Below, in pieces: positions 4,801 to 52,200 of a stretch of DNA of 64,000 nucleotides. The DNA comes from Candidatus Omnitrophota bacterium (lineage in GTDB: Bacteria > Omnitrophota > Omnitrophia > Omnitrophales > Aquincolibacteriaceae): assembly GCA_903884815.1 (NCBI GenBank), contig CAISGE010000058.1:6583-70582 (forward strand), in the 5' to 3' direction. The notes below the pieces were generated by a model. It was not told the origin of the DNA, did no database searches, and saw only the letters and a program-made list of their open reading frames with translations. The translations under genes and the position numbers were made by a program. Numbering within the stretch: the first letter of the stretch is position 1; each line of letters opens with the position of its first letter.

Positions 4801-7800
4801 TTGATCGTTATTCATGACTTTAAAACAAGCGAGGAATTGATCGAGGCTCAAAAGGTGCTGGAAAGGAAAATGACCCGCAATTTTATCAACGTGGCAGAAA
4901 AAGGCTTTGAAATGCCCTCGTGGATCAGCGTCGAAGAGATCAAAGCAGCGCGTAAGAAGCAGGCAGGAGCGCCGGAGCCTCACTTGGGTAAACAGATCTT
5001 GAGGAAGGCATCCTGGGCTGTTCATTATTTTTCCAGGGTTTATGAGGCGAAGGATACCATAGAGGCCCTCGCTATTCCTAAATTAGACAAGCCTGGTTCC
5101 CTGCCTCGTAATCAGAACAAATTGTTATACCGAGAAGACTTGTTTCGCCTCTGGCCCTCTCTGTCACCTGATTTGAAGAAATTGGTTTGGCAGATTCACA
5201 TGGCTTTAACGCCGCACGGTAATGTGGATAACGAACGGCCCGAGATAAGCGGGACTTATGAGCAGATCAAGGAACTGGAGAAGCTGGGCCTGCTTACTAT
5301 ACGGCGAGAAACTCCTTTTGAAAGGGACAGGAAGCCCGGAGAAAAGCCTTCTCGAATTAATGCCGTAGCGACATGGGTCCAAGTAACTCTTGACCTCAAG
5401 GAAGCGAACGGACAGAAAGGACTGTACCGCTCCGAATCCCGCACGCCAAAAGGGAAGGCGGTTGTGTCTGAGACGCCGGCGGCCCGCCCGGAAGCCGGCG
5501 GGCAAACGCACGCCATTCCTCCCGCCATGGCGGCGGCGAACACCGAGGATCTTGAGAAGCCGTTGGTGTTATCCGCCTCATTTAAAGTTGGGCCGGACGC
5601 GGATGAGGAGGGCTTGAGGAACATCTCAAGACAAGTCAATCGCGATCTCTTGCCTCAAGACCTGGAGATCCCTTCCGCCGGGCTCCGGCTTGAAAGGGAC
5701 CCACAGGATTTCCTGAATCTTGTCGAAGGCGATAATGCCGAGGAATCTTTGATCGTCGGCATTTTTATCCACAATGCTGTCGATGCGATCGCAGACTTGG
5801 CGGAGGCAGAGAAGCGGCCGATCGAAGGACGTATCACCCTGACCCTAAGCCGTCAGGGCAGGAACATTCTTGTCGAGCTTTCGGATAATGGAATTGGCAT
5901 TCCCCGGACAATTTTACGCCGGTTTTCAGAGGAGGGGCCGGTCACTACCAAGCCTCCGCCGCACACCGGAAAAAGACTTGGCGGGTTCGGGGTCGGGCGA
6001 GCGCAGATCTATGGCGTGGTCGCCGAACGTAAGGGCTCTGTGGAGATCGAGACGAGAACTTCGCGGGAAGGGGCCTGGAAAAAAGTGATCGATTACGGGA
6101 CCTATAGAGCCATGGGGCGGAATGGCGTGGGGTCACGGTTGCGTCCCTCCGGGCGTCAAACGGTCGGCACGACGATCCGCTGGATCATCCCGGCGAATCG
6201 CTCCGAAACCCGCGAGGTGACGACTTCTCCGGCGGTCACAGCCGAAGAGATCGAGGCGATAGATAGAGTCTCCGTCGCGATAAGGAGTCTTTTTCACGGC
6301 GCTAATAACCCCGTCGAAATTTCCGTTGACCTCGAGCATATCAAAATTATGCTTTTTTCTCTCGCCGGTATCCAGAACAGTGGTTACATAGCGAAATTCA
6401 TGGATAAGGTCATCGCAGGCCTGAAGACTCTAGGGGAGGAGTTTCGAGACGCGTCACGGGCCGGAACTTTAACCGCCGCAAACGCCCGTCAATATGGGAA
6501 AAGGCTTAGCGATCTTCTCGAGGAGATCAAACGCCGGGAAGCGAAACTGAAGATCATGCGAACGGAGTTGACCGGTACGCCTGAACGACAGCTTGCTGTG
6601 AAGAACAAGGCGACGGAGGAGGCGATCAACAAGAAGAGAGAGATATTCTCGGACATCTTTGAAAGCTTTGATCTGGTGATTGGAAAACTTCAGAGCCGCG
6701 TCGAGATCGCGACGGGCAGCACGGCATCCTACGCCTCTCAGGACGTGGCGCGAATCCTCGACGAGATTCGCGGCCAGTTCAAGAATGTGAAAGTGGAAAA
6801 CAAGCTGTCAGCTCCGGTCATGGTTCACGCCAACCCCTGGGCTCTGCACAGCGCTTTGTGGGTCATCATTGATAACGCTGTCTCATATTCAGAAGGGGAA
6901 GATGGGCAATACAAGACGGTCCAGGTCACGTTAGCCGAAGAAAACGGCAAGGCGAGGATCGATGTCAGGGATCTCGGAGCCGGCACAAATGATTTCAAGG
7001 ACATCGACTCGGTCACCCAAAGGCCACGGCCCTTTAACCGCGATTTCTCCAAACGTCCCGGCGGGACGGGGATCGGACTTACGGAGGCGTGGATCGTTCT
7101 GGTGAAAGCCATGGGCGGCACGATCGAGGTCCATTCCGTTCCCGGTGAGGGCACGACCTTCACGATCCGGTTGCCGATCCGTTCTGAGGGCAGGAACCGG
7201 AAGACCCCTGCGGCAGGAGGGGCCGAAAGCGTGCTGAAGGTGGACGGCTTGTTCGACACGAAGAAGATCCTTGAAATGGTGAACGCGGGCCTCTTGGATC
7301 ATATCAAAGTCTTTGTTTTTGATTACGACGGAACGCTGGCGCCTGACAGGAAACCCATGTCTTCTGAAATGGTGGAGGCCCTGCTGGCCCTTCTCGCTAC
7401 CGGCAGGAAAGTTATCATTCTGACCAACGCGGATTTTATAAGATTGAAAGTGAGTTTGGACGGTAGCGTTGCTAGGAACGGCAAAACGATACAGGCGAAT
7501 CTCAGGGCGGAGGATGAGCTCTGGGTGTATGGGGAACGTGGCGGAAGCGCGCGCCGGATGCGGCCCGCCGGGTATGAAAGTTTTCCCGATCACGCGATCG
7601 CCTATGCTCCCGGCGCGGTGGAGGCTATCACGGCGGCGTTCGAGTCCATCCGGGATAATTTTAAAGCAGACCCCGCGTTCGCTGGACAAGAATTGAAGCT
7701 CCAGGTATTCAATGATGTCGCCACGAATCCGTGGTGTTTTGTCCGGTTCAAGCTGATGGGCGACAGGGAAATACCCGAGAAAAAAATGATCCAGATCGGC

Positions 7801-10800
7801 GCATCTCTCAGGAAATTCCTTAAAGACCGCGGCATCAAACTGCCCAAGGGGACTGGGCCATTTGTTTTCAAAAAGCCTTACTCTTACCCGACCGAGATCG
7901 ACGGGATACAGTACGCGTCGGGTGTCTACCATATTGCATTCCTGCCGAGCGAAAAAAGAAAGGCCTTGAGAGAAAAGATCATTCCCTTGCATTGCGACGG
8001 GAAGGTCGAAGAGATGTTCTATGCCGGCGATGGCTTCTTCAAAGGTTCGGATAAGGAGGTCGAGGGAGTGAAAGATCTGACCAAGGCGAATGTGGAGGAT
8101 CCGGACGGGACCTTGGAGATCGCCAATGCCTTTCTGGCAAGATTTAACAACGTGTCCGCTGCGGCGGATGACAGCCGCGCGGAGACGCGGGAGGCGAGGT
8201 ATGCCGCTCTTCGCGAAGAGCGGGATCTGAATGTTTGGAGCGGGTTGTTTACCGGGTACCAGGACGCGTTCGCACGGGGCGAAAAAGGGACGACCCGGCC
8301 CGTTCTCAGTCCCTACGCTTTATCGCCTATGAAACTGGCCCGGAAAGTTTTAATTGAAGAGAGGACGCGGGGTGCCTTTGCAAGCCGGCTTGATTTCATC
8401 GAGAGATTTGCGCGGATGAAATTCGATGATTCGGAAATACACGGGCTGGATCCCGGTGCTGTGGCGGAATGGGCCATTTTGCACCTTAACCAGGCGTTTT
8501 TGAACCGTTACAGCGTTCTTCAGGAAGTGGATTCAGTTTCTCTGTCCTATGAAGAGTGGAGGACGTTGCTCGAGGAAATCCGTGCCAGCGAACCCGCGCT
8601 GTTCGAGTACCTGGATTTTGAGGGATACCTAGATAGCACGGTGGCCTTCCAGCCTTACACGGGCGAGAGTAATATTGAGGCTCAATTGAAAGATCCCCGG
8701 CATCCCGAAACGGCGATCATTGTAAAAATGATCGCCATGAAGTTATTCGGGGAAAACCCGCAGATGCTGGACGGGATGCATCTGACCAAGGGGACCCATA
8801 TCAGTCTTTCTTCCGGGCTGGTGGTAAGCGAAGAGGTCGACCGAAGCGGCGAGAGCGCCGCGGAATTGCTGGATGATTTCTTTACCGTCGAAGAATGGAC
8901 AAGTCATGCCTTGATGGATCCCGATTGGGGATATTACGGTTCGGGAAAAGTTGTATTCGGAAATCACTTCAATACGGCGCCCCAAACGCTAAGGCCCTAT
9001 TTCGGGAAATTGGTCGCCGAGCAGGCTTTTAAGATGTGGCGGGGTATGCGGGATGCCGGAACCATTCACAGGGGCGAATCCTTCCATGTGAGGGAGCCGG
9101 CAGCGGGCGACGGCCAATTGATGGAGGATTTCCTGCAACATGCCTTGGAGCGCTCGGCGGCAGACGCCGACTGGAAGGAATTTTATGAGGCGCTTCTTTA
9201 TGAAGCCATCGAGCCCAATCCCGTGACCGCTCAAGGGATCAGGGCCAGAAATCACGGTCTTGAGACGTCGGGAAAAATAAGGGTCTGGCAGGAGGATGCC
9301 TTTCAATTTTTTAACCGGGCCCGGACCAAACCCGTCAAAGGGGTCGTTATATCCAATGAATTTCTGGACAATATGCCGACCCATCAGATCAGGATCTCAA
9401 GATCCGGAAAAGTCGAGGTGGGCGTCGTGATGCCGCGTATTTCCAAAAGGGCACTTTCTTACTTTGCACGCCGCGGATTTTTAAATGACCAGCCCGGCAT
9501 ACGATTCATTCCGGATAGGGACGATCCCGATTATTTCCTCGTTTCGAAGGGCACTTTCCTGGTAATGCGCAAGCAGCTTGAAAAGCCCGAGAATTCTATT
9601 TTTAAAACGCTCCTGAGGGGCGAGATGGAACTCGCGCTGACCTATGTCGATGCGGCCGGTTTTCCGGAGCTTGAAAATTACGCCAAGATCAATGAAAAAG
9701 AGATCCATGAAGCGATGGAGCGGATGGAGGGTGAGGAGGATCACCTGACCGCGATGGTTTCGTTAAAAAATGTGGAGTACCTGGGCCTTGTGAAGGACTC
9801 GCTCAGCGCTGGATACGTCTTTACTCTTGACTATGGTTTTCCCGCGGATCTGGTATTCAGTCCCGCGATGCGGCAGATGGATATCTATCATGACCCGCGT
9901 CGGGAAATCAATTATTACTCAGATGTCGGCGATTTTGATATCACCTTCAAGCAAGATCTTTCATTTGTTATGCGTTCGGCGGAAGCGCTGAGTCTAAAAA
10001 CGAAGTTTTTGGGGAACGAAGGGGCTCTGACAGCCGGAACAGGGATCGATCTGGGGTCGTATGAAGCCCGGAAAACAATGTTTCGGGCGGGTTTTCAGCG
10101 GTTGAGAGACGCGTTCGGGCAAAACTCTAAAAGCAATCTCGCACAAAGCGGGTTTGATGCTGCGGACCGAGCATCTTTGGCGAGCCTCATCCAAGCGGTC
10201 GTGGAACAATTCCCTCTGGATGAACTCAGCGAGGCCGCGGCTAAAAAACAGTCCACGCTTGCAATCCTCAGGTCCTTCGCCCGGAAAGCTTTGACCGCGT
10301 CGGCGAGTGAGCACGACGCGCAAGCGGAGTCGGAGATCCAAATGATGATGGTGCCGCTGGTTGAAGGGCTTCAAAATTACATTCACGTAACGGATGCTCA
10401 GACGGAAGCTTTTTTGAAAGCTTCTCAGCGGGATGAAATGGGCGTGCCTTTTAGTGTTTTACTGGCGGTTCATCAGGTCCCGCATACCGATGATCATTAT
10501 GAATATCCAGAAGGATTCGAAGACCTGCGGTATCTGTTGTTAGGCGAAGGAGAGGCCTCCAGGTCCACTCCGGAAGCCGGCGGAGCCAGACCCTGGAACG
10601 CCATTCTTGATAAGTTGATCAGAAACATGAAGAACTCTCACAATGACTGTGTTCTGAAGGGTCGAGAGGCTCTCATTAATAAGCTTGAAGCTGACGAGCG
10701 CGATCGCGGCGCATTTTCCCAGGCCGATTTCGCGAATCGTCTGTTGCCCATCCTTTCGGAACATGTGAGCGGTGTTGAAACGCATGAACTTTTAGGCTGG

Positions 10801-13800
10801 TTTCACCGGGCACTATTTCCGCCGGCCTCCGGAGAACGCCGCTCCGAGACGCACTCGAAGTCTGCTTCTGAGCCTGGCTCGCGAGCCGGGCACTCGACCG
10901 CGGTCACGCTTTCGGAGGTGCTTGCGGCTCCGGACGCCGCGATGAAATTCCAGATCCCGGATATTAAAAATCCCGGAAGGATGATCGAACTGGAGCGGAT
11001 TGTTCCGAAAGAGGACGAGCCGGTCGCGAAGCGCGAGGGATTACTGGCGGGTACTCGGCTCCTTTCTTTCAACGTGGCGGGTCTCAAGGATTCCATTCTG
11101 ACCCTGAAGTATTCCGAAGCGGATAACGTCGTTGAAGTTCTGTATATCAGCGTCCGGGGAGGGCAAGACCGAGGACTCGCCCAGTCGGTCTATCAATGGA
11201 TCGCGCGGACAGCGCCTCCCGGGCACAGGATCCTGATTTCCCCATTCAACGAACCGGCCCAGCTTGTCTTTTTGCGTTCCGTAGAGCTTGCGGGGATCGA
11301 GCTGGTGATCGACCGGAGGACATTGAATGATCGTGACATTATTGAAGCGCTGAATGTTCCTGCGGATCAAAATCAAATGGATTCTCTGGATTATCTCCGG
11401 TTGGTCCTGACGCATCCGCGACTCGAGCGGACTTTTGTGGAGGGTAGGACCCCAGACGGTGTGACCGGGATCATATTCAGGCAAAGACCCTCGGAAACTG
11501 TAAAAGCCGGGGAAGGAGATTGGTTGGCGCTTGGTCCTGGAGAAAGAACAGCGCAGGAACTCAGGATCAAGGTGCGGGGAATGCGGCCCGGCGGAAGCGT
11601 GGTCGAGGAAGCCACCGCCATCTTCAGACCCGCCGGCTATTTTGAGATCGTAGATCAGCGCGGGGACGAGATTCTTTCCGGCCGTTTATCCGTGGTTCCC
11701 GTCACGAAGATCTCCGGCAACCCCGTCCGCTCGGAGACGCGCTTGGATGAAATAGACGACTATGTACCTGAGCCCTTTGATGTCACGGTATCCGGGGTGG
11801 CGACGGCCGGGCAATTGCTCCATTTGCGGCCCATCAAGGGCTTGCGCCCGATCCTGAAAGCTTTCCCCCATGCCCGTGGGCGTTTGACGTTGCTTGACTC
11901 AAGCGACGGTACGGCGACCACAGCCGACGTGCGAAGTATCATGAGTATTCTTTTGATGACCGTCCAGCCGGGAGTGAAGATTCTGGTCGAAACGGGCGGG
12001 GAGAATGCTCAAGGCTTCTTTGATGCGATCATATCGTGGATCGAGGCAAATGATGAGAAGAGTCTACCGGTAATGATCGGGCAAAGTGCAGATATCCTGG
12101 CACTCTCGGGAGTCAAGTATGCTGCCCAGGATCCGGAAGAGCTTGCCGCAGTAAGCGCTGAGAAGATCCGGAAACTGGCCGGTGATTCTGCAAAAAATTC
12201 CGAAGGCGAGGTGCCTAACGCCTCGGTGGTTCTAAGATGGAAGAATCCCGTCTCCAGAAAAAAGGATATTCAGTTGGCAGTGGCCCCTTCCTGGATCGGG
12301 CATCTTCTTTCGCATCCCGATCTGGCGGCCGCGGCGGGGATGGCCATGACAGGAAAACCGGGAGGGCCGGATCTCAAATTGCACGGTTATTACCGCCTGC
12401 TCGTGGATTTTGACGGACACAAAAAGCTTGTTTCCATCACGATCCTTCCGGACGTAGGTGTGTTCGATGAATCTAAAAAACCGGGCGCGCCGCAGAAGGA
12501 AAGGGTGAAGGCCGAGAAGCAGTTCCGGGATGATGTGATCCTCCTTGCGCGTTTCTGCGCGAAGATGACGGAGGCCTATGGGCTGACGGAACGAGAAAAA
12601 GACGCGATCCAAGTGGACATTCTGGGTTTCGACGAATGGGCGGCGGCGCTCCGGGCGAAAGAAAGGGGAACCCCGATATCGGACGAAGATAGGGAAGAGG
12701 GCGGGGCGATTACGTTAAGTCAACTCAAGGCCCTGGCCGCCTGGCCGCTAGAAAATCCGTGGCATATCGAGAATTTCGGCGACCGCTCCGAAGTCCGCGC
12801 CCCTGAAGTATTACCGAGCGTGGCTTCCATTTATGAGCGTTTGCCGGCCGCCATCAATGAGCTTCTGGGTGAGGCGGGCCTCTCTGAGACGGAATTGGCC
12901 GCCGCTCGAAATATGACGGAACTCCTGACGGATATTTATAAGGATATGGGGCTTGCGGGTGAGGAGTTCTACCACAACATGGCCCACAACCTGGAAGTGA
13001 CTTATCTGAGTCTTTTGGCCGCCGCGGGGAGGCCGGAGGGCCCCAATGCCTGGGACGCCAAGATCCTTTTTGTGTCGTCCATGCTACATGATTTCCATGT
13101 GCGGAAACCCCATATGAATCCGCCGGTGGTCGAACAGACACTCCGACAACTGAAGCCTGTATTTCATAACGAACCGGCCGTGGGTCTTGAGGCGGCGGAT
13201 GTCCCTGTTTACGAAGCCTTGTTTACCACCGAACGCCAGGCTGCGCTCAAAGCGGCTCTGGCAGGAGTTCTTGGAGATGTTCCGCTGCTCGAGGCAGTGC
13301 CGGCGATCGAGGCGATCATCCGCCGATCCGACTTTGATCCCAGCCCCGTGGAATCGGAAAATATTTCGGCCCGGTTCCTTCAGGCGCTATACAAGATCCC
13401 GGCGGGTTCTCAGCAGAGGCATGTGGTGAACCTGGCCTGGCTGATGCAGATGATCGACTATGCCGGGTTCTATTGTCTTCTCGATCAGGAAGCGGTCCTT
13501 CAGAAGGTCATTCCCGGACTGGCTAACGAAAAGGGAGCCGATAAGGCCAGCGCAGAAGGAACTTATCGCTATTTTCTAAAACTCAAGCTTGCTTCCGGTG
13601 ATAATGAGGGTGATACGGCGCTTGCGATCGTCCGTCTTCTTCCCGAGGTTTTTAGGCGAAATCTTTTATCGAGTTTCGCATCGTTTGCTGCCCTGAGCAA
13701 GGCGTCTGATAGCTGGAAGGCAAAGGAGCCGGAAGTCTGTGCGAAATTGGGAGTTGAGATGTATGAAACCCGGATTCCGGAATATCGCGTTTGGGTCCGA

Positions 13801-16800
13801 TTGATCGAAGCGGAGATCCGGGAGAGTCCTCTCGAGATGTGGGAGGGCATGAAGGAAAGCTTCGTGAGTGGAATCTATGAGGGTCGTAGGGTGTTACCGG
13901 ATGACCTGGTTTCTTTTCTAAAAGCGTTCGCGGAATCCCATTTAAAACTTCTGACGTCTGCTGCGGCACCCGGCGGAGAATCCCAAGTGCCGGAATCTTC
14001 GGAAAAGGGAAACATCCTCAAAAACATCCGCGCCATCCGCGACCATCTTTGGAAATTCTTTGATTCAGGGCAATATCCTGATCCCGAAATCCATAGAACG
14101 ATCCTTAAGCTGAATGCAATCCTTCGATCAGAATCGCGCACCCCTCCCGAAGGGAAGGCGCCCGGTAAGACGGTCTGGGACCGGGTCAAGACCGTGTTTG
14201 TCTGGGCTATGTGGATCACGGGCGGAGTCCTCTGTCTCGGAATTCCCTTGGCGGGGATCATTCTCTACCACTGGGATAAGGGGCTTTCGGGAGTACCGAT
14301 GGGGTTGTATCTCGGGGGCGCCTGTCTCGCCATAGGGGATTCGTTTTTCTTTGAGAGAATCGTGGAACGGTGGCAGAAGAGGATCACGTCCTATTTCGAG
14401 ACGCGCCTGATGCACTGGATGAGGCAGCATGAGCCCTCTTTGTGGTACTTGATCCTGAGTTATAAAACAGACGACGCGAAAGATCGTCTCCTGAAGATCT
14501 ACCGGGATAGGTTTTTCCGAAAATCCTCTTTTGAGAAATACATGAATGCCGTGAACAAAGTTCTGGAGTCGATACGTGCGGTCCATCCGGATTTGTGGGT
14601 CGACGTCCTGGCCTTGCTGAACGGGGGATTGCTTTACGATGAGTATGGCCGCGGGGAAAAGGACATGGGGATTGTTCGCGATCTCGTGACGGATGACATC
14701 TTGTTTGGCGATCTTAAGCCAAAGCCTGAGGCGCCGGAGGTTGTCGAGTTTATTGCTTCGGGTCTTTCAAGGGATTTTGGGCGCATAAAATTCGGCGATG
14801 ACCCTTTCTCGAGCACCGACCATGAGAAATTCATCTCTCTCTTTAACCGTCTCCCCAAGCACTTTGGGATCAGGGTTCTGCGGTTTGGGAAAAACAAATA
14901 TGCTCTGGGGGTCAGCCTCATTGAGGCGCACGGTCCCGAATACCGTTGGCCTCTGATAAAGCAATGGGGGAAAATCTTCATTAACCGGACGGCACTCGCC
15001 ACCTCTCTCGTCGAGACGCCAAGTGTGAAGCCCACGGCCATTTCCAGGGAGAGAGAAAGATTTTCCCCTGACCGTTTGCCCGAGTCCGTAAAGTTGAAAG
15101 AAGGAAACACGAGGCTGGTCTACTTAGCGTTTCCTTATCCGGATGAAGGGAACTATCCTTCCCCGGACGCTCAAGGGCCGCTTTATCCGCGCGGTCTACG
15201 AGGGCGGCCTTCGGAGAACATTTCGGACCATATTTTCTTTGAGCTAGGGGACGGGAAAATTCTCCCGAAATATAGCACGGACGATGAGGCGCCGGCTTAT
15301 GCCGTCGTGATCGATCTCCCCGCGGACCTGGCAAAACAGGCCCTTCTGATGGAAGCCCACGATGTGCCGGCGCCGGACGCAAAAGGTCAATTAACATTCG
15401 ATCCCGCTTTCGCGAATTTGGCGTTTTTGTTTTCCGAGAAGAGCAAACCGAACATCATCGGAGTGATCGACCGCGCGACGCTTGAATTCATACCCAATGA
15501 GAGTCGCTCGGAAGCGCGTCCCGGTGTTGTTCGTGATCCTCAACAGGTTGTTGCTTATGTTAATGAAATCTTGAAGCGTTTTCCGGATTCTCTGGCTTCA
15601 GAATGGAAGGCTCGTTTAGAAGGATTCAGAACATTCAGCCCCGCTCCGGGGCGCTATGAGGGAATGGTTGCTGAGTTGAAAGAATTCACAGTAGCGCTCA
15701 ATGATAGCGTCATGAAGGCGCGCGGGTCAGCAGGCTTTCAAGCGGTTCTTCCCGTCGTGATCGATCTGGACGGTTTTGTGAGCGCGCTTCCTCGCTCTGA
15801 GATGCACAGTTCTACTTCTGGTTCCGGGAATCAGAGGTTGGATGCCTACGAGACGAAGGGCGGAAGGACCACCGTCGCGAAGAAACTTTTGAAGGTCGGG
15901 CTCTGGGCGGGGCTCCCGCCCGTGATTGCCGCGGTGATCGTTAATTTTGCGGCTCTTTTCTATCTGAAACACCACGAGGAGCGTGTTTATCCCGGGGACG
16001 GTTTTGAGCTGGGTGTTTATCCCTACGCTCAAGTTGACGGTAAGAATATTTTCTACGTTTCCAACGGGCCGCTCTACGGAGAGAGCACGAAAATAAAAGG
16101 GGAGCGTTTCAATATCGGCCTCGTCCGCTCCATGGGGAAAACAATCAATATCTACAACCCGAACGCTTCTGGCAGCGCACAGCAAAAAGCCATCTTTCTG
16201 AAAAACAAATCGGGCGAGATCCGCATTATTGCCGCGGCTGATTTTTCTGCCGAGAAATACCCCTTAGAAGATTGGCCGGATGCGTTCCAGGCAGGTCCCC
16301 TGGCCGTCATTGACGGAAAGATCAATGAGAGTATTTATTCCTGGAATGAATCTCATGACGGACGCAAGGTTTTTATCGGCGTGGACGCCACCCAAAGAAA
16401 TTTGTTCGTGCTTGAGCTCTATGGGAATGATGCCGCCGGCTATACAGCTCCCGGGACGAAAGAATTTAAGATGAAAGTCGAAAGATTTGTCCACGGTCAC
16501 GCGATCCTCGACGGCATGTGGACCGATGGCGGCACCATGGGTAAAGAACCGGGCCAAAGGAAGCCTGTCACAGTCCTTGGCGGAAAGCTCATCCCTCAAG
16601 CGGGTCCTCGCAACGAGAGACGCTTGAATCCTATTGATTCAAGCAATTCCAAACGGACATGGATCCTGGGTTCGGTCATTGCGGCTCTGGCGATTGGAAT
16701 GCTGATCGTTAAGGTCGTGGAGCCTTCTTCCTCTGAGAAAGAAGCGGAACTTCGCAGGAACGGGGAGCACAGTCAAACAATCGTGCCGGCCCCTTTGGAA

Positions 16801-31013: not shown

Positions 31014-31046
31014 CGACCATTTCAACTGCGCTAGATGAAATGGTCG
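31014..31046 (+). terminator. perfect 10-bp stem hairpin between the giant genes
   Basis: CGACCATTTC (31014-31023), 13-nt loop, GAAATGGTCG (31037-31046). The nearest T6 run is about 28 nt downstream, so this may be a terminator or a regulatory structure. Confidence 0.3.
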
Positions 31047-40200: not shown

Positions 40201-43200
40201 CTCCCGGAGACGGACTTGAACGGAATTCTGAAAACGCAAGGAGTGAAGTTCCCCACAGGCGTGAGGGGAAGGCTTCTGGACACCTTTCAAGAGAGCGGCT
40301 TCAAGCAGGCTTTGCTTGGGGAATTCAGCCGAACGATGATGGCCGGCGGCGTGGTCCTTGTCGAGGCGGATGCCGGCTCTCTTCGAAGGCTCACAAAAAA
40401 TGACAAGGAATTCGAGCTGGTGTGGACCGGCGAGGACGGGAAGATCCATGTCCTTGAGCGCTTCTATGAATACCTGAATCAGATCACGAATGAGAAGGAA
40501 CGGATCAGTGTCGCCGCCGCGCTTTTCGCACGTCAGATCGCCGCAAGACTTTTTCTCCGGATCCTCAGCCAGGAGGACCCGCAAGCAAACACGAACCCCG
40601 TTCTGGCTCCCAAAATTCTCCTGAGTGCCCGTGCTGTTGAAGATTTCGTCTTTAACTCCGCGCCCCAAAAACTCGAAGAGTCGCAGGTCGATCTCCGCGC
40701 CCGCGGCTTCATACACCAGCAGATGTGGGAACGCCATGAACCCATGGCTCGCCATGCCGCGCCTCGTATCGATTGGGGCCCTAATGAACGCCGCATGAAA
40801 GGCCTTCTCAACCGGTTGGAGCTCATGCGCGACAAGTTGGTCACGGCCGGTAAAGTGACTCCTGCCGATCGCAAGGAAATAGACGATATAGACGCCTCTT
40901 TCACGCTGACTTTGAGCAAAAAGACGGCAGATGAGATTGCCCGGAAGGTCAGGGCCGCGACCGCCGTTGAAATTGAGGCGCAGCGCGAAAGACTGTTGCG
41001 GGCCTACGGCGTGATGCAAGGCCGGATCGTTGCGGCAGCCAAAAATCTCGAGGAGAGAATCATCTCGGAGAAGGCCTACCAGGAAACGACTTCCAAGGCG
41101 AACGCTCAGGCGAACGGGATCCTGAACCGGTTGATCAAGGCGGATCTCGCTCTGATCCGCGCCCAGCTTGAAATGAGAGTCTCCTTCCGTAACAGCCTGA
41201 ATGATCTTATCAATCACTTCGAAGAGAAGGTTCATGAACTCCAGTGGCGGAGCGTTCACGATCAGGCCCAGAACGAGATCAAAGAGGTTTTTGTCCGGGG
41301 CGCCGCAAGCGATGATTATTTGAAAGTCCGGATGCTGAAGGATGTGATCGATCGCCAGAGAAGGACGGGCGTGACCGAGCATAAGGAGTCACGGTGGAAT
41401 CACGAGGAGACATATTATCTGGCGACGATCAAGCAGCTCGTGGTCGCGCTCGCGGATGAAGAGGCGGCGGTTACGGTCAATCCCAAGGCGAGGCGCGCTT
41501 GGCTGCTCAGCTATCTCAGGATGAGAAAGGTCGATTTCGGCGGGAAAGCCGATGACGCGGTCATGCTGGATGACATTGCCGCGGCGATCTATTTGCGGCA
41601 GGACATCGCGGACGCCGTGATGAATAAAGTCGGGAAGTGGGCGCATTCCAGGCCTGCCGCCGGGCTTGATGATGCGGCGCTCAGGGAACGGGAGCTCATC
41701 GCCGAGCTGATCCCGGAGCCTGATGACGTGAGGCCGGTCGAGAGACTGAAGCGTATCCGCTATGCGAATCTGTTTAATTTCCTGCGGTCCCGCGATCATG
41801 TGCTTGAGACCTACGACCGCGAGGAGCGTAACGCGTGGCAGGCGATCGGTTTCTGGAATGACATCGCGTATCAGCTCAGAAACGCAAAAAGCGATGCGAT
41901 GACGGCCTCGCGTCTCCGGAATATCCGCTGGGACCTGGCGCCGATCGAGGAGTGGGTGGCGCACGCCCGCGTGGATGAGAAAACAAGGATCCGGGAACTT
42001 GTGGCGAAGGCGCGGGACAATGTCAAATTGGGGCAGTTCGACATCGTTCTTGACGCCGCCGCAGAAGCCCAGACGATACTCCAGAACGACTTTATTGAAA
42101 GGATTCGCCGGATGAGCCGGTATGTGGGCCAGCACAAGCAGTCCATCATGGCGGAGCTGGATACCGGCATGAAGCTGATCCGCTCCGGGATCCGCGAGAA
42201 TAGGCGTCGTGATTTCGGAAAGGCCTTGACCCGTTTCAGGAATTTTAAGGCACGGTATCTTGATGGCGCTAAGTCCACGAGCGAAGAGCCAGGCTATATC
42301 CGGGCGAAGAAGAATCTTACGATGGCGATCGCGGAGCTCGCGGCGGCTCATCAACTCAATTACGTTCCTGCCGAGGACCGTTTGCTCATCATTCTGAAAT
42401 GCCTCTATCGCGTTTGGTACGGCGTCGAGCATAAATACGAAACCATTCCTGAAATGGGCCCCGAAGCCGACGAGATCGAAGCCGAAGTCACTGCCCGCGC
42501 TCGCCAGGACCTCGCCCTCCGCGCCGAGATGCGGAAGGTGGAATTTCTTGGAGCCGATCATCCGATCGTTCGTGATCTGTCCGCGGCGACAACCGGGGCG
42601 GAGGTCAGAAAGATTTTGCCGCGGCTTATTCCCGAAGCTGCGGAGAGAAAGGCTTATTTGGCGTTTCGCGTGATCTCTCGGAATGCGGAAAAAGATGAGG
42701 CCCTTGAAGCCTTGGGGTTCTGGACGGACGTGAGCCGGTCGGACGCCATCGATGCTTTCGAGGCATCAATCCCTCAGAAGTTGGGGAAGCCGGGGAGCAT
42801 CAAAGGGATCGTTTGCTATCCTGGAAACAGGACTGTTGCGATCGAATTCCGGAATGGCGACAGCGTTGTGCTCGGCGTGAAATCCGGTTTTTATGGATCC
42901 ACAAAATTCGAGAACAACATAAGGGGGAACCCTTCCGCTTCGGATATTGCCGCGTTTCCGAAAATTCTACAGGGATATCTCCAAAATGGAAATTTGACGG
43001 TGCGGGGGGTGAAAGCGGATCTCCCTTTGGAGTATCTCTTGCCGACCACTATCCAGGTTGAAAAACTTGCCCAAAGCCTGCCTGATCTAGAGGGAGTTGT
43101 TGTAAGCGACTCGGCGTATCAGCAATATAAAGAGGTGCAGCAAAAAGCGGCAGCGGCAAAAGAGGCGAAACGGGTAAGAGATGCGATTCAGGCTGAAAGC

Positions 43201-46200
43201 GCTAAAGCTGCCGAGAAGGTGAAACTTAAAGACGCCGAGGAAAAGAGACTGGCCAAGGTGGCTCTCGAACAAGCCCAACGCGCAAAATGGAAAACGTGGA
43301 TCGCGCGATGGTCCCTGAGGGTGGGGGTTTCCGTCGGACTCGGGATCGGATGCCTGGTCGGTTACAAGATTCTGGATCTTTTGAAGTTGGACCGGCAGTC
43401 ACGCGCGGCGAGAATCATCAAACAGGACGTGACATCGCTTGATACCGATCTCGTGGAATATTTCGGGTACTATCCCTCCTTGGAAATCCCTTTCCAAAAA
43501 AATCTCGCCCGGTACGAAGAAGCGCTTTCGCACGCGAGTCTCAGTCAGGCGGAGGCGATGGAAAAGGCGACGGGGGATTACGATCTCGCGGCCGCCCTTG
43601 CCGGGATCGAAAAACAGCAGCAGGCCCTCGCGGCAATCCCGAGCGACGTCTTTGACTGGCGGGCGGGATACAGGCAGTACTTGAACCTTGTCTATGATCT
43701 CGCGACAAAAGATATCGAGCGCCGGTGGAAGGCAGCGGTAAAAGCCGGGATTCTTGCGGAGGCGGATCACCGTTCTCTTTCGGTATCGCTCCGCGAGTTG
43801 GTGAAAAATTCGATACAAGCTGAGATCGGAATCGCGGAGTCTCAAAAACTTCCGGTCAGGCCGATCGCCTTCATGGCCGGGCTCTTGCAACGTCCGCACC
43901 CGATCGTGGAACAGTTGCAACATTTGAAGCTGAAGAATGACCGGCCCGAAAAGGATCTGACGGTGATCGCGAGCGCGAGTGTGACGCTGCCTTATTCGCT
44001 TTACGCAAGAATGGTCAAGTATGCGGTCCATCAGGGCGGGACGGCGGCCGTATTTTTGGACGCGACACCTTTTCCGGGAAAGCCGGAGATCCTGACGATG
44101 ATCAACCCCGGCGGGAATACCATCGACGGGAAAATCACCGGCGGGAATATCACCGTTTGGTATCGCGGAAAGCCGGTGGGCAGTGCGCAAGCCAGCCGCA
44201 GGAATTTTGATATCGAGGGTCAGAAGATCCATCTCCTGAGCGCGGAGGGACAACCCGTCCGCACGATCGATGTGAGCAAATTCCCCGGCCTTCCCCGCAA
44301 CGAGTTGCGGGTGGCGGTTCCGGCGCAGGCGTCGGGGCGTATATGGAGATTGGGAATGGCGGATGTTCGCTCGCTTCCCGGAGCAAAAACCGTCGATCGG
44401 CTCAAGAATCTGGAGGATACAGAGGCCCGTAGTCTTTACACGAATTTGCCCGAGATGTTGCTTTCGGATGACGGGAAACTTGAGATCGCCGAAGAAAGCT
44501 TCAATCGGGGAATGGAAATCCTCCAGGAAAAGATCCGCCGTCTTAATGCGACGATCAAACTTATCGAGCGTAACGAGCCGGGTTCCGATTTGAAAGATAT
44601 TCTGGGAACCCATAGGGATGCGTTGGTGGAACTGGACAAAATCCTACAGAAAGACCCTCAAGCGATCGTGCAGCGCATGGCGAACGAGAATATCCGGTTC
44701 TCGGTGGTGTTTCTCGAGGAAGGCATTCTCAAGGATGGCCGGCGCGTTAACTATGGCAGTGAGATCGTGCTCGGGAAGCTTCGTAAGGGGTTGGCGATGG
44801 CGCAAACCATGCTGGCGCAGGCAATCGAGGGGTTGGAGCTGAACGCCTTTGTTGAAAAAGTTTTAGGGCTTCCCCGTCGTGAGCAGAGCGATTTTATGGC
44901 GAAAAGCGATGAGCTGAAGCGTTTGGATGAGGACGTGGCCGAGACTGTTAAAGCGGCGATCATCCAGGTCTCGATGTTCCGTAAGAACGTTTCGGATGCC
45001 GAAGAGTTTGACGCTGTCATGAAGGAGATCCTTGTGAAGATCCAGACGGAGGGAACTCCTGAGGATAGCGAGGCGGACGGTCACGCGAAATTCCTGGATT
45101 ACATGCTGTTCCCGGAGCAAGTGCCATCGCCGGAGCAGTATTTGGCTGAGCGGCGGGCGCACGGAAAACTTCTGAAGGCCGTTGTTCTTGTGGGCGAAGG
45201 TCTTAATGCTACGGGGCACTTGGCGATCGTGATCGGAAGCGACAACGAACCGCCCATTTTAGTTTCTATCACTCCGGAAAACATGAAGGAAGTCAAAAAA
45301 GCGATCGCCGAGAGTGGCGCCGGAGGTCAGGTCCCGATCCTCATCCGGCCTGCGGAGGCCGGTTCAGAGCGGAGCGTCAAAGAGGAAGGCGCTGCCGGCG
45401 TGGCCATCGAATTGATCGTCAATCCCTCGGCGGATGAGCTTGCGGAATACCGGCGGCAGGAGTGGATCCAGTCGCTTTGGCCCAAAGCCCTGGCCCGTTT
45501 CTCGCGCGGGATTACCCATTCGGTGAAGCTTAACATGCTGCCCGGTCAGGAGTCTGATCCCGACCATGATGTGGGGCTTTACCGGACCGAGATCATGACG
45601 GCCGAGAGGCTTCAGATCTATTTCGATCTTTTCAAGATCAAAACGGCGGAATTGAACGATCCTAAGGGGGGACGCGACGTGGGAGCGAACCTGAAAGATG
45701 CTCTTTGGCGCCGGCTTTATGAGGATATGGAAGATGAAATGCGGCATATTGCGGAGGATCCGACGCTTGCCGGTAAAAGATTTCGGATGAGGCCCGAGGA
45801 CCGTCGCAGTGACAAGAACTCGGAATATTATGTTGAAATGGAGATGAACGGGATCCCGAACGACGCGGAAGGGCAGGACCATTACCGGACACCGCTCGGA
45901 CGCATCGAGCTTACTTTCCGCCTGATGGCGACTTTGACAGCCGAGGCTATGGCGGCAAAATCCGGGAAGCCACATGCCAAATTCGAAGTGATCTATCCCG
46001 GCGTACGCGGGCCCGAAGACCTCGACTTCATTGAGAACGAGATCCTTCCGGAGGCGAGAAAGTTCGCCGCGCAACGGGTCGCGGAACTTTCGGGGGAGAC
46101 TGTTGAGGCGTCCGCTCGGGCGATCGCAGCCGCCGAGGCAAACATCCGTTTTGGGATGATGATCGAGCTTTCCGAAGCTGCTGTGGAGAATAGGCAGGCG

Positions 46201-49200
46201 CTGTTGACGCGCCCAGGATATTTGGATTTCAGTGTCGGGTCAAACGATCTTGAGACGAGCCTTGCGGATAAAGCTTCACAGGCCAAAGGGGGGCCGAGGA
46301 TCACTCGCGATAGCCCGGAGATCAGTCAAGCGAAAGGTATCATCGGAGAAGATATGCGGGAGATCGTGACCGGTTGGGCGAGTGATATTGACCGTATGAA
46401 CCGTGAGGCAGCGCCGGGACAGGAGAAAACGCTTTCGATCTGCGGGGAGAAAGCGGCAGACAAGGAAGGACGCAACTTCTTCGGGCCTTTTTTCAACGAC
46501 CTTGTACAGCGCTTTCCGCGTGCGAATCTTTCCCGAAGTATGTCCGTGGGGAGCATTCCTTACACTGCCACGCTTGAAAATTTGCTTCGTATGCCGCAGT
46601 ACTCCGGCATCGGCTCCGTTTATAGCCAGCCCCGTCAGACCGAATTGCCTCTCGAGACTGGGGCGACGGAAGAAGCTCCGGAGGTCGAAGCCGGACGCGA
46701 GGTGGAGGCTCTCATGCAGAACCTCAGGCCCGTAATGCTCGTTCTGGAGCAGTACCAGTCCCGCTACGAACGTGAGGGTTTTTACGATGCCTTGCATCTG
46801 CTCAAGATCAATATGAGGGACGGCATCGGGGGGCTAGCCGAATTTCAATATCTGGACCGGATGCTTACGGCTGTTTCGAAAGAGGACAAGAAGCCTTCCG
46901 CCGACGAGCTCTATGTGGATCCCGACCAGAGGATGAACGCTGCCGGCCTCCGAACGCTTCTTAAAAAACTCAAAACGCACGTCAAGTCCGGTTCGATCAG
47001 CGCGGAGGATATCGATTTGCTTGAGGAGGCATTTAAATTTATGACGTCCCTCCAGGAGTCTTTTGAGACGGCGAGCAAGAAGGACCCCGAACTTTTTGGC
47101 CACTCACTCAATTTGCACAACATGGAAGAGTTCCTGAAAGTTTATCCTTTGGCTTCGGGCGATCCGACGCGCCAAGCCTACGATCTCATATCCCAATATC
47201 AGGCCTACGCGGAGAAAGTTTTCACTATCACGGCTCGCTTCCTTTTCACGGTGAGTCAGGAAAAATTCCCCCCAGAGATCGCGAGCGAAAAAGATCTCGG
47301 GGTAGCGATGTCCGATCAGAGTGGGAAAGTATTTTTCATGGAGCAGGAACGGAAGGGGATCAGTTTTTATTTGGGGGAAGGTTTTGTCTATGGCATCGGC
47401 CGGTATCTGGAGGTGAAGAATGCCCGGGCGTGGCTTGAGGCGAACCCGGAGCGGCTCCTGGAGATCTTCCGTGTTGCGGCGCAGCGCGGCCTGAGGATCT
47501 CGCAGTCGACACAGCAGGCGATCGAGGGTTTTCTGGCGTCCCAGGGGCCCATCGTTCCTGACGAGGTTCAGCGTGCCTGGATGAAGGATTTTGATCATAT
47601 CCTGAAATCCCCCGGGAATGCGGAGTATGCGTTGATCCGCATGGCGCGATTGGGAGTGCTATCAACCCTTTTTCCGGAATCCGTGGCGAGCCGGGGCGTG
47701 CGGGCACGTGAGGGAAACCATTTTGATCTTTTTTCGGATGCGCTTCGCAATTGGGAAATGCTCGGGGCGTTACCCTCTCAAAAAAACCCTGTTTACAGTC
47801 TTGCCCAGGAGACCCTTCACCAAGAGGGGACGAGTCCTACTGGGTTGAGCGATCTTCGACTGGCATTTTTCCTTCCCAGTCTTACGAGGGGATGGGATCT
47901 GAATTCGTCGCCTGCAAGCAGACTTGCGTTGGTTCGTAGCGTCCTGCGTCCCTACGCGAATGCCACTGAAATGAAGCTTAAGGATTTTGTGGGCTGGACG
48001 GCGCGTCTTGTGCGGCTGCTCGATAAACAAGCCTCTCTACTTCAGCATGATTTTCTGACGGATGCTGAGGTTTCCAGGGCGTTGGAGCATCTGACGAAAG
48101 GGATGGAACGCTCCGACATGGAGCTTCTGCGGCAGATCTATCTTATGGCGTTTGTCGCCCGGGCGGGACTGCCCGATTCGGTTGACCGCGGCATGGGCGA
48201 ACGACAGGGACTCGATTCGCCGCTGGCTGATCTCGACACAATGTCTCTCGCCGCGCAGCTCTTGATCGCGGAGGAGCCCGTCAGAGCAGCGGCTTCCGCG
48301 CGCATCGCGGAGGCCGAAGCGGTTGCGCGTCAACAAATGCGGGATGTTGCGGTGGAGAGTGGTTCTGCGCGGCTGCAGGCTTTTGAGCGGATCCGGTCGG
48401 GAGTGCTGAGTGATCTTGCCAATACCGGGGCCATGAGTCGAACCCTGAATGCTTATCTCAAAGTGAACAGGGTGTTGCCGGATTTTCGTAAAAAAGCCGT
48501 GGAGAATGTCGATCTCAAGATCAAGAAGAAGCTTGGCGTCCTTGCGGACGGGACCTTGGATCGTGATGTTGCAACGGCTTTTTTTGATCGCTACGCGCAG
48601 CGAGTCTCGAAATATTATGTCGCGTCCGTGGATGAAGCGACCGTGATCCAGGACCTTTTGATGCTCGCGCATCTTGAATCGGTGCATGAGGAGGAAGGCC
48701 TTGAGCCCGCGGTAAGTTTCCGGGCGTTGCCGCATCACCATCAGCAGGCTTTCGAGATTACTTTCGGATTTCCGATGGCCTCCCCGAGCGCTCTGGCGGT
48801 TTTTCTCGGCATTTTGGCGAACCGGGGTTTTTCCATTACCAACGGACGGCTTTATCCATCGGGGGACGAGAACGCGCCTGTGATAATGAAGTTTTCGGGT
48901 GTTTTCGAACAGGGGCATGTGGACGCCCAGGCCATGCGCATGCAGATCGCCACGGATGTCCAGTCGATCCTGGAGCCGGAAACATTGCCGAAGAAGCGGG
49001 CCACCTTCTTCGGTCGCGCCCGCGACATACTATCCGTATTCTTTCTCGGGGAGAGGAAAAATCGTTTTAATCGTCTGGCCGATCGGTTCCCGGAAGGGTT
49101 CACGGTCCAGAGCTTGAAAGCTGAATGGGAGAAAGCGGAGACACAAGTCGAACGGCTTCCCCGGGACCCCTCCAAGAATTTCACCACGTTTGTGATCTCG

Positions 49201-52200
49201 ACCGATATGCGGCGAGGTCCATTTTACCTGGTGGCCACGCTCCTGGCGAATACCCGGGTTTTGGTCACGGGCTTTGAATATGACACCATGAACGGGAGGC
49301 GCTCGCGTCTGAGATTGGATCTGACGCATAGCGGCCTGCCTCTCCGCCAAGACATGGAAGAAGGCATTGAGCAGGATCTTAAACGCTATCTGGGAATGGA
49401 ATTTGTCCGCGTGAAGGGGGATGAGATTGTCCCGGTAAAACGCTCCGAAGGGCGGTTGGAGTTTTGGTCCTTTGGGGATTATGAGAAGGCGTTAAAGGGG
49501 ATCCCGGTTGCGAACCGAAAAGCATTCGACGATTTTCATAATGAAGTGACCAGATTTCTTGGATCGCATGGGGAATATGTGACTCAGGCGAATCTGAATC
49601 GCGTGATCGGGATCGTCCGGGACCCAGATCAACCCGAAATTGTCCGCTATACCGCCGCCAGGCTTCTGCGCCATTTTCCGAAGTTTGATTCGTCACTCGT
49701 CAATGAAAAGAATCGAAAGAATGCCTCCGGGCTTTTGAGTGATCGCGATTCCTTAGGTCTGGCAGGCAGTAGTTATCGCTTTGAAATGGAATTTAATGCT
49801 TTTCTGCTTCAGTCCGGGGGAACCATTGACGGGGGATGGCTGCTAGGAGGCGGCGTTTCGGCGCCATCGGCGCCCGTTTCTAATACTGCAAGCCTTCCCG
49901 GAAAGCGCACTGAGATGCGAAAAGACTTCGATCAGGCGGCTTTGGATGAATTCCTGAGTGCGTTGAACTATACGCTTACCGGCAATATTCGGCTTAGAAA
50001 ACGTGCGACGGTGAGCTCCTCCATTGTTGTTTCTCCGTCCACTCTGCGGTTTCCAAACCCTGCTGAAGTTAATATGACCGTCAGCATTAAAGAATCCGGC
50101 GAGGGCGCGATCCTTCCTCAGGCGGAGAAGGAATATTTCAGGGACTATTTGAATTCAACCTTCCGCCGTTCCTATGTGGAGGCCTTCGCGTTAGATGGAT
50201 ATGCTCAGTACACATTGTCCTCTTATGATCTCTCGGAAACGGATCAGTCCGTTCAGGTGAAGATTAAATTTCAGCTTCGCGCCGGTCCAGTTCATGAGCC
50301 TCGTACTGATTCGGGGGAGGCCGATGTCCTGCGTTTCGAGGCGCGAGCAGCGACAATGGATGCATTGAAAGACATGCTTCACGAACCCGAAAGGATGCCG
50401 GGGTGGAATTGGGTGGGCCGTGGCAAGGTCCAGCGCTTCATTAAAGTGGGCCCCTCGGTGGGGATCGTCCGTGTGACGGAAGACTCCTGGGGAATCGATA
50501 TCAGCGAGCCGGCGCGTGGCGCTGACCGGTTGACGATTACCTGGAGTGAAGAGGAAGGGTTGTGTGTCGGGCGTCAAGAGATCAAAGGCTTTCGTGGCAA
50601 AGGGAAAAGCCCGCTCGTGAGCTTCTCGTACGCAGAAAACGACACGTACCCACAGGACTTCAGTATTGCATTCACGCCGGAAGTTTACACCAAGGACACC
50701 GAAGGGCTTCTCCCGGAGGATAACCACGCGTCCACCACCCGGGGAGTGGGGCCTATGGGTTACACCTTTAAAGGCCGATCCGAGCACCGGCATTTTCCGG
50801 AAGCCGTGGCCGTTGATGACGAAAAAGCCGCAGAGATCGCGGCTGTGGTGGCGACGTATTTTCCTCCTGAGCTTCCTAAAGTCAAGGTCCTCACAAAACA
50901 GAACGCGAGTCAGTATCTGAGATACTTTTCAACGCTGGTCATTCGGATCAGGTCTTCAGGCATTCTGGATGCCTTGCCCGACCAGATATGGGTAAAAGAC
51001 ACGGGCGATTTGCTGCCGCGAATGATCGAGAAAAAGACCTGGTTTAACCGGCATGAGTTCGGGAATTTCGCGACAGTGGTCGGCGCAGTTAGTAGCGCTG
51101 AGACGGATTATCCGAGCGTCGCGGAATACCTGGCGGAGGTCGAGCTGAAGAAAAAAAGACCGGAAGAGATCCGTAAGGCCCGTGATAGTTACGATCTCGG
51201 GAGGATCCGGAATGCGGATGAGGTGCTGGGTATTTTTGCGGAGCTGTGCCGGGACCATTTTGACTTGTTCGAAGATAAGTGGAAGGAAACGAAAGCGGAC
51301 GGTAGTCTTAAATATGAAGCTACGGAGGACTCGCCGATCCCTTATCAATGGATCGTTCCGTACATGGTCCACAGATCTTTTGGCAAGGGGGGGAGGGAAA
51401 TCCGGGAAGCGGTCTTCAGAGAAGCGGTCAGGCGTACTGAAAAAATCTGGCCTCAGGTTCGAAAGTACACCCAGAAGATCTTTACCGAGATCCAGGCTGA
51501 ATGGGACGATGCCGTGCTCCGGCTGGATTTGCCTGCAGCTGCGCCAGTCGAGACGGCGCCAGTGCAACCTGTGCCGGAACTCGTCCAGGGCGATCTTTTC
51601 CGTGGAGAGCTTCGCGGCTCGACCGCGCAGGTCAAGACAGCGCTTGAAAAGTTATTTGATCGGAGCGAGAAACGGAACCTCGTTCCGGAGTGGGTGCCCC
51701 AAGAAAATATTCAGGCGATCGAAGGTGCGGCGGCTGAAGCGGATCATTTTTATTCTGTCCCGGGCCTCGAGGTTTTGATGGAGCCGGACCGGCGCTTCGC
51801 GGCGCGGCTATGGATCGCAGATCGGCTGATCAAGGCTTTCGAGACGCAGCAACCCAAGCCGGGCACGATCGAGAATGCGGCGCTGCGAACCGTGATCGAT
51901 TCCTTGAAGCGCTTTCAGCTGACGGGGACGGCGGATTCTGTTCTGGAAACAAAAGGAATCCACGTGTCACTGCCGGTCCTTATGCCGGAACAGTATCAAG
52001 AACTGGCGGAACTCGCGCCTGTCTTTCTCGCGTTTGCCGTTTCACTTAACGCGAAACTTTATTTGAATGTGAAAGGCCAGGATCCGGAAAAACTAAAAAC
52101 CTTATTTCTTTCCGCGGCGACCCGGAACGGTATTGAGGCAAAGGCGTTTCTTGAGATTGTGGCGGTCCGGGGTTCTCAAGCTTTTACGTCCGCAAAGGAG

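Follow-up and report, generated by a model that had tools for sequence, protein, structure and literature searches.

Giant genes are a hallmark of the Omnitrophota. Papers on these genes consider cleavage of the products possible, with cut points unknown, and describe the roles of the open reading frames (ORFs) as poorly understood; in a 2026 catalogue of 916 long proteins, polyproteins, cleavage, linkers and a motif go unmentioned. Here, we describe two giant ORFs, g1 and g2, in a 64,000-nucleotide (nt) stretch of a Candidatus Omnitrophota genome (assembly GCA_903884815.1, contig CAISGE010000058.1; the whole stretch is referred to below as the window), and a junction peptide, R-[S/A]-E-x-R, that recurs between their modules. 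Like the reported Omnitrophota giants (Archaeovorin, dockerin-type and 'multi-enzyme' proteins), g1 and g2 belong to this phylum and are ORFs of great length in which few domains are annotated. Their Pfam content (methyltransferase, HATPase_c) agrees with the 'signal-transduction/regulatory' modules listed in the 2026 catalogue. Unlike the Archaeovorin and dockerin giants, they have no dockerin, TSP3, C39 or S8 peptidase, or SecA among their Pfam matches. Nothing relevant was found in a non-exhaustive literature search on the motif strings and on bacterial or Omnitrophota polyproteins.

Several systems described elsewhere share part of this organization. MARTX of Vibrio is likewise a very large protein with unrelated effector-type modules, the set of which varies by strain. 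The MARTX array is cut at inter-module linkers by a protease within the chain, and the same arrangement is proposed here; one MARTX effector, RRSP, has a TIKI-type fold, as predicted for the N-terminal domain of g1 and g2 (N-domain). Cleavage of MARTX occurs at a Leu-X bond, whereas the putative site here is R-S-E-x-R and the candidate protease is N-terminal and of the His/Glu type. Also, g1 and g2 have no RTX-type repeats or C80 domain by Pfam and no internal repeats by self-BLAST, contain far more modules, including membrane proteins and proteins exported by twin-arginine translocation (TAT), and are not accompanied by adjacent type I secretion genes in the window.

Polyproteins of viruses (picorna-, poty-, flavivirus type) resemble g1 and g2 in having whole proteins in one ORF and one short conserved peptide per junction, the variant of which covaries with lineage. 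This peptide is recognised by a protease from the same chain, a role for which the N-domain is the candidate here. The viral polyproteins differ in that g1 and g2 lie on a bacterial chromosome, carry highly variable cargo and have an unrelated candidate protease fold, and in that we infer their cleavage. The gingipain/adhesin polyproteins of Porphyromonas (RgpA, Kgp, HagA) are made as precursors that are cut after Arg/Lys in inter-domain linkers. Unlike g1 and g2, they comprise only a few, related domains, rely on a cysteine protease and have no strict pentapeptide; phylum and scale are different as well.

The junction peptide in g1 and g2

The R-x-E-x-R motif is real, strongly non-random and conserved across the phylum. 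It marks the edges of protein-sized modules, which resemble ordinary whole proteins and are separated by disordered linkers. We consider these sites to be, probably, the proteolytic processing sites of a bacterial polyprotein. The two ORFs are arranged head to tail:

1882..30921, + strand: giant ORF g1, 9679 amino acids (aa); signal-like N-terminus, N-domain, ~22 modules with R-x-E-x-R junctions between them, C-terminal module
31249..52464, + strand: giant ORF g2, 7071 aa; architecture as in g1; cargo including Rce1-like CPBP and GlnD-like nucleotidyltransferase modules

Pfam matches are few. Those in g1 comprise HATPase_c, Methyltransf_28, weak HPr and protein-kinase matches, a TAT signal, DnaJ, and two PrmA-like or class I methyltransferases; those in g2 are an Rce1-like CPBP protease and a GlnD-type nucleotidyltransferase. 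By BLAST, only the first ~600 aa are common to g1 and g2 (24% identity). Since self-BLAST revealed no internal repeats apart from this common N-domain, the motif is not part of a longer repeat.

A sequence-only reading of the window had reported at least 20 sites of the form [RK]-[SAT]-E-[TM]-R, located between recognisable domains. Every site with a listed coordinate is present, at most 10 nt off. The number was too high for the pattern as written, which occurs 15 times in g1 and g2 together, or 17 times with Asn allowed at position 2; the excess over composition is nevertheless very large, with 17 sites against an average of 0.20, and never more than 3, in 2000 amino-acid shuffles. The broader form, R-[SATN]-E-x-R, gives 33 sites against ~1.65 expected, and RAETR and RSETR are the top two pentapeptides of both giant proteins. 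Matches to R-[SATN]-E-x-R are limited to the coding frame, with 0-2 per frame in the remaining five and none in the rest of the window. The location between domains was borne out, in that no Pfam domain match contains a motif site and several sites adjoin one. The junctions and their variants are as follows:

4066..4080, + strand: RRELR, variant junction closing the N-domain (g1 aa 729)
4558..4572, + strand: RAESR junction, linker duplicated at 5428 (g1 aa 893)
5428..5442, + strand: RSESR junction (g1 aa 1183)
6199..6213, + strand: RSETR junction, histidine-kinase module begins (g1 aa 1440)
7180..7194, + strand: RSEGR junction, directly after the last HATPase_c residue (match aa 1654-1767) (g1 aa 1767)
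8176..8190, + strand: RAETR junction (g1 aa 2099)
11728..11742, + strand: RSETR junction, precedes module with weak HPr match (g1 aa 3283)
12784..12798, + strand: RSEVR junction (g1 aa 3635)
14125..14139, + strand: RSESR junction; hydrophobic helix 23 aa on (g1 aa 4082)
15505..15519, + strand: RSEAR junction (g1 aa 4542)
16609..16623, + strand: RNERR junction; hydrophobic helix 13 aa on (g1 aa 4910)
17245..17259, + strand: RSEMR junction (g1 aa 5122)
18709..18723, + strand: RSETR junction (g1 aa 5610)
19699..19713, + strand: RNEMR junction (g1 aa 5940)
20479..20493, + strand: RNEMR junction, precedes module with weak protein-kinase match (g1 aa 6200)
22387..22401, + strand: RAEIR, first of double junction in duplicated 29-aa linker (g1 aa 6836)
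22474..22488, + strand: RAETR junction; TAT signal 5 aa on (g1 aa 6865)
25444..25458, + strand: RPEIR, variant; paralogue of the 22387 linker (g1 aa 7855)
25531..25545, + strand: RAETR junction, 11-15 aa ahead of the first helix in the methyltransferase model, in a segment of low confidence (g1 aa 7884)
26521..26535, + strand: RSETR junction, 3 aa past the final strand of the PrmA-like methyltransferase module (g1 aa 8214)
27607..27621, + strand: RSEMR junction (g1 aa 8576)
28252..28266, + strand: RAEKR junction; DnaJ J-domain (DYYEVLGV...) from the very next residue (g1 aa 8791)
30058..30072, + strand: RGELR, variant junction before the C-terminal module; aligned to RSEVR of the relative L005 (g1 aa 9393)
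33565..33579, + strand: RAETR, first junction past the N-domain (g2 aa 773)
33598..33612, + strand: RSEKR junction; hydrophobic helix 13 aa on, multi-pass membrane module (g2 aa 784)
35671..35685, + strand: RAETR junction, CPBP/Rce1-like module begins (g2 aa 1475)
36466..36480, + strand: RAETR junction, CPBP module ends (g2 aa 1740)
37462..37476, + strand: RTEMR junction; hydrophobic segment 2 aa on (g2 aa 2072)
38431..38445, + strand: RAENR junction (g2 aa 2395)
40075..40089, + strand: RAEVR junction (g2 aa 2943)
42520..42534, + strand: RAEMR junction (g2 aa 3758)
44296..44310, + strand: RNELR junction (g2 aa 4350)
49441..49455, + strand: RSEGR junction (g2 aa 6065)
49906..49920, + strand: RTEMR junction (g2 aa 6220)
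50776..50790, + strand: RSEHR junction (g2 aa 6510)
51661..51675, + strand: RSEKR junction, precedes g2 C-terminal module (g2 aa 6805)

Many modules begin or end within a few residues of a site. Namely, RSEGR follows the last HATPase_c residue, RAEKR stands directly before the J-domain, and RAETR at aa 6865 lies 5 residues before a TAT signal; hydrophobic anchor-like helices start 2-23 aa past four sites of the window. Among the relatives of g1 and g2 that share the N-domain (the family), 6 of 7 TAT-like [STN]RRxF[LIVM] sequences lie 1-17 aa past a motif, and most are then followed by a hydrophobic stretch. In L058, Met stands directly after 5 of 10 sites, as in RAEIR-MAMARRQFLK. An AlphaFold model of g1 aa 7860-8240 (13 sequences; predicted template modelling score 0.77) displays a confident two-domain PrmA-like methyltransferase, flanked by RAETR and RSETR in segments just outside it with a predicted local distance difference test score (pLDDT) of <50. 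Stand-alone PrmA-like enzymes match this model.

The cargo content of different family members is almost unrelated, and cargo BLAST matches between them are few. The ends of these matches cluster at the motif, 59% of them lying ≤30 aa from a site (random sites, 13%), and 6 of 38 BLAST matches span a site, against 15.7 expected. The proposal of the sequence-only reading that the motif acts at the protein level, as a linker or junction between modules, agrees well with this location at module edges.

Complete members of the family show the same order of parts: a signal-like N-terminus, the ~650-aa N-domain, the first junction ~550-750 aa past the QDAH motif of the N-domain, variable cargo, the last junction, and a C-terminal module. 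In the window, the latter is represented by:

30073..30918, + strand: g1 C-terminal module, ~282 aa; weakly conserved in the family; ends ...AVGTAA
51676..52461, + strand: g2 C-terminal module, ~262 aa; ends ...KILVAA

Across the family this module measures ~260-320 aa, is weakly conserved and always ends in -[A/S]-A (L005, L009, L011, L015, L020, L024, L025, and others). The tail of three proteins reads R[A/S]EVR[K/Q]AA before the stop codon, that is, the junction motif plus three residues. No homologues of the C-terminal module were detected in a 5.8-billion-protein set (searched with a single sequence and with a 12-sequence alignment), Pfam, or PDB.

Two pairs of linkers are duplicated within g1. 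In the first pair (22387-22488, 25444-25545), R[A/P]EIR-SP[E/G]Q[I/F]...[N/K]-RAETR forms a double junction with its parts 29 aa apart. The second pair (4558-4610, 5428-5480) starts with R[A/S], and a similar tandemly repeated linker occurs in L015.

Conservation, codon usage and other giant families

An N-domain alignment search of a species-representative genome collection retrieved 233 relatives, and 80 loci were kept (L004-L083). These belong to metagenome-assembled genomes (MAGs) of Omnitrophota or of an unclassified 'uncultured bacterium' (Planctomycetales is the label of one), and a genome often has several copies. The N-domain-bearing ORFs of the 80 loci contain 342 motifs in 185 k aa, or 1.85 per 1000 aa, so that the motif recurs in homologous giant genes; 325 ordinary ORFs of the same loci contain 4 in 109 k aa, or 0.037 per 1000 aa. 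Nearly all remaining occurrences fall in neighbouring ORFs of >900 aa, most of which end in the C-terminal -[AS]A of the family. The consensus of 372 sites is [A/S/P/G]-R-[S 72%, A 23%]-E-[V, L, M, A, T]-R-[S/A/T/M], with R1, E3, and R5 essentially invariant and with flanks rich in Pro, Ser, Thr, Gly, and acidic residues, including Glu. The median spacing between sites is 320 aa, close to the average length of a bacterial protein.

The peptide is uniform within a protein: RSELR in L021, L051, and L070; RAEVR in L019; and RAExR in L058. Identity at position 4 is 0.296 within one protein and 0.285 between different proteins of one genome, both higher than in label permutations (0.146; maximum, 0.27). 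The preference is common to the paralogous giants of one genome: Met in JBAYGD and JAHFHB; Leu in CAYSSX and JAFGHI; and Thr/Met in this window. Position 4 is set at the genome level, which is what a shared, co-evolving reader would produce.

The codons of the motif had been described as almost invariant. This was overstated: at the 33 sites of the window, CGC encodes the first Arg in 22 and GAG encodes Glu in 19 (no different from background), Thr is ACG in 9 of 10, and the last Arg is mostly CGG. Synonymous shuffles nevertheless revealed a real bias at the first Arg (CGY 25/33 vs 13.0 ± 2.8; reached in 0/1000), at the third base of codon 4 (G in 22 vs 16.3; 10/1000), and at the last Arg (CGG in 15 vs 9.0; 16/1000). 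Throughout the family, the first Arg is CGY in ~78% (background, 40%), Ser is TCN in 98% (background, 67%) with AGY almost absent, Val at codon 4 is GTG in 73% (background, 30%), codon 4 ends in G unless it encodes Leu, for which codon use is unbiased, and the last Arg favours CGG. Genomes of low, medium, and high GC content show this bias alike, and neighbouring residues do not account for it. The Ser bias could follow from interchange of Ser, Ala, and Thr, all of which have NCN codons; the CGY bias cannot. Selection acts mainly at the protein level, with a real codon bias on top of it.

Different junction peptides occur in other families of giant proteins. A HMMER scan with g1 aa 7884-8795 (window 25531-28266) yielded 38 relatives among 1.84 billion representatives, most of them contained in other proteins, 1.2-8 k aa in length. 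It seems, then, that the pool of such methyltransferase modules is largely private to giant proteins. Six of the proteins (P0012, P0023, P0027, P0031, P0039, P0044) are members of the R-S-E-x-R family. Others carry G-A-R-L-A (P0017, 17 sites vs 0.13 expected; no Cys in 5295 aa), [A/G/S]-S-S-P-[V/L/I] (P0015, P0018, P0020, P0026, P0030, P0032, P0038; e.g. 15 vs 0.16, 12 vs 0.15), or D-x-A-M-[T/S] (P0019, P0021; 8 vs 0.10). These motifs are 20- to >100-fold enriched and spaced ~300-350 aa apart, in proteins that are also low in Cys, and TAT signals follow some of the sites. The N-terminal domain of the SSPV-type giants has no Pfam match.

In the alignment of the methyltransferase module, five rows display the motif of their own family at the position aligned to RSETR, and three more display it a few residues on. 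The element stands ~3-12 residues after the last conserved strand in most proteins and further off in P0032; it is RSETR in g1, SSSPI, SSPM, or SSPV in the SSPV-type proteins, GARLV in P0017, and DRAMT/DEAMT in P0019 and P0021. In P0029, the C-terminus itself (...RKAA) stands at the aligned junction position. Since the same module bears the motif of each host family, the junction peptide is a property of the host protein, not of the mobile module.

Proposed proteolytic processing and its alternatives

Among the ideas raised in the sequence-only reading, polyprotein processing fits the observations best, and it is probably correct. According to this reading, g1 and g2 would be bacterial polyproteins, chains of protein-sized modules (histidine kinase, methyltransferases, DnaJ, a TAT-exported protein, membrane proteins, and a CPBP protease) on short disordered linkers. 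R-[S/A]-E-[aliphatic or small]-R would be the recognition and cleavage site of a dedicated endopeptidase, which would most likely cut right after the second Arg. The enzyme would most likely be the ~650-aa N-domain present in every family member, and the freed modules would act or be targeted separately, for example via their own TAT signals or membrane anchors.

The codon bias and the coincidence of module edges with motif sites could instead point to an element acting mainly in DNA or RNA (a recombination joint, a cassette boundary, or a signal for RNA processing or translation), the peptide being a by-product; the bias (CGY, TCN, G-ending codon 4) is, after all, independent of GC and neighbours. 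We regard this as improbable. The motif matches only in the coding frame, and its conservation resides in the first and second codon positions, with 0.2-0.4 bits at third positions and Glu at background. The sites of a single protein have the same peptide but differ in their synonymous codons and have unrelated flanks, which also speaks against the recent spread of a DNA cassette that had been suggested. The DNA/RNA-level selection of the sequence-only reading survives only as the codon bias, and is much weaker than claimed. Its recombination joint agrees with the module edges, but the same module carries other junction peptides in other giant families. No Rfam RNA family matched inside g1 or g2. 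An RNA hairpin (CGY...GCG) was considered and rejected, the 3-bp stem being too short and the tabulated trend weak. The bias in the first two codons (CGY not CGR/AGR; TCN not AGY) might also be taken to mean that the ribosome itself separates the modules, by a stop-carry-on mechanism or by termination and re-initiation without a stop codon, and position 4 is often Met, Val, or Leu, G-ending except at Leu. Such a mechanism has no precedent in bacteria, lacks a ribosome-binding-site-like context here and explains the strict Arg, Glu, and Arg residues less well than recognition by a protease does; it is very improbable. The possibility that position 4 is a start codon (ATG, GTG, TTG), either internal or left over, was rejected, as Ala, Thr, Ser, or Ile stands there in ~40% of sites and Leu codons show no preference.

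The main rival to proteolytic processing is an uncut element in giants that stay intact, for example a structural hinge or a place where a partner protein, a chaperone or an export machine docks. A strict motif proves only that something reads it, and published work treats Omnitrophota giants as possibly intact membrane-anchored multi-enzymes. We nevertheless hold this explanation to be unlikely. TAT signals and membrane anchors right after a motif work only at a free N-terminus; an N-terminal signal, an internal TAT signal and cytoplasm-type enzymes on one chain are topologically incoherent; and the nearly unrelated module content of different members is contrary to one assembled machine. Least probable of all is that the sites are phospho-acceptor or otherwise modified residues (Thr/Ser flanked by Arg) for the embedded kinase. 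The weak protein-kinase match in g1 and the frequency of Ser at position 2 would suit this suggestion of the sequence-only reading, which did not withstand comparison with the family: Thr at position 4 is peculiar to this genome, others having mostly Leu, Val, Met, or Ala; Ala occupies position 2 in 23% of sites and, in some proteins such as L058, at all ten of those listed; and the kinase module is not conserved.

Several points weigh against proteolytic processing itself. The evidence for cleavage is indirect. The signal-like N-terminus may place the N-domain outside the cytoplasm, yet a good number of modules have a cytoplasmic appearance, and there is a TAT signal in one. Recent gene fusion could have left the internal TAT signals and the residual Met behind as relics, and the TIKI superfamily also includes esterases and non-enzymes. 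Finally, a purely proteolytic model leaves the CGY and TCN codon bias without explanation.

If cleavage does occur, it would amount to virus-like polyprotein expression in bacteria on a large scale and would bear on gene counting, on stoichiometric co-expression, and on effector delivery by predatory or parasitic nanobacteria. The junction peptide supplies candidate cut points, together with a candidate protease, and a rule for splitting giant ORFs into protein-sized units for annotation; if the reading is true, the actual products of giants could be derived in silico, which according to published work could not be done. Protease and site pairs could also serve as tools. It is a substantial possibility, although short of probable, that these giants form a new class of near-Cys-free polyproteins with dozens of unrelated whole proteins, i.e. 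operons or effector arrays written as one ORF, in which each family has its own strict junction peptide and cognate protease, here the N-terminal TIKI-fold domain.

The N-terminal domain, composition and neighbourhood

Both giants open with an N-terminal region of the same type:

1882..4065, + strand: g1 N-terminal region; hydrophobic aa 14-32, then ~650-aa domain with TIKI/TraB/erythromycin-esterase-like fold
31249..33564, + strand: g2 N-terminal region, a homologue of the g1 region (24% identity, ~600 aa); QDAH at aa 105

The first 730 aa of g1 matched only partial proteins, the named ones being from Candidatus Omnitrophota or unclassified bacteria. The residues D87, H89, E117, R468, and H506 are invariant in 12 aligned sequences. 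A predicted alpha/beta core with a parallel beta-sheet, as in the structures of Ere, ChaN, TraB, and RRSP, was indicated by a fold search and is split by a helical insertion of ~280 aa. The N-domain shares with the TIKI/TraB/PrgY/erythromycin-esterase/ChaN/RRSP group this predicted fold and resembles it in the order acid-x-His, Glu 28 residues on, His; the His-to-Glu spacing of 28 aa equals that in Bcr135 (H85/E113) and RRSP (H3902/E3930), with Asp in place of the first Glu. This substitution and the insertion set it apart from known members of the superfamily, as does the absence of any Pfam match at E ≤ 1 to the TraB, Ere, or ChaN models and of any PDB sequence match. Within the superfamily, TIKI and RRSP are site-specific endopeptidases, and in RRSP the 2His/2Glu set is catalytic (PMC6254334). 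On the strength of the predicted fold and the conserved residues, the N-domain is a tentative candidate for the processing protease, an assignment that is possible rather than probable. The CPBP protease of g2, proposed as the processing enzyme in the sequence-only reading, is a poorer candidate than the N-domain because it is a single variable cargo module that is not conserved in the family.

A hydrophobic segment resembling a signal peptide or anchor opens both giants (1882-2000, 31249-31370); in g1 it comprises aa 14-32 and is followed by TWA-DP. Unless the chain is cut, this signal-like N-terminus is hard to square with an internal TAT signal and with cargo of the cytoplasmic type. Cysteine is scarce, amounting to 0.17% in g1 and g2 (1.5% in the other ORFs of the window) and to 0.12% in the family (1.0% in the 325 ordinary ORFs of the same loci), while residues other than Cys occur in the family within ~35% of their ordinary frequency. 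Avoidance of cysteine is typical of proteins that are exported unfolded or act outside the cell. The low Cys content fits, and suggests without being proof, a chain or products made for export, which might represent an effector array.

A flanking gene assigns the sequence to freshwater-lake metagenome scaffolds. A tRNA-Glu gene (52806-52883, + strand) directly follows g2 and is accompanied by a large serine recombinase gene (52843-54360, - strand). Next comes a region of lower GC (0.42-0.47 vs 0.52-0.56) with genes for helix-turn-helix and tetratricopeptide repeat proteins and small genes of no known function. This part of the window (52806-64000) looks like an integrated mobile element beside tRNA-Glu.

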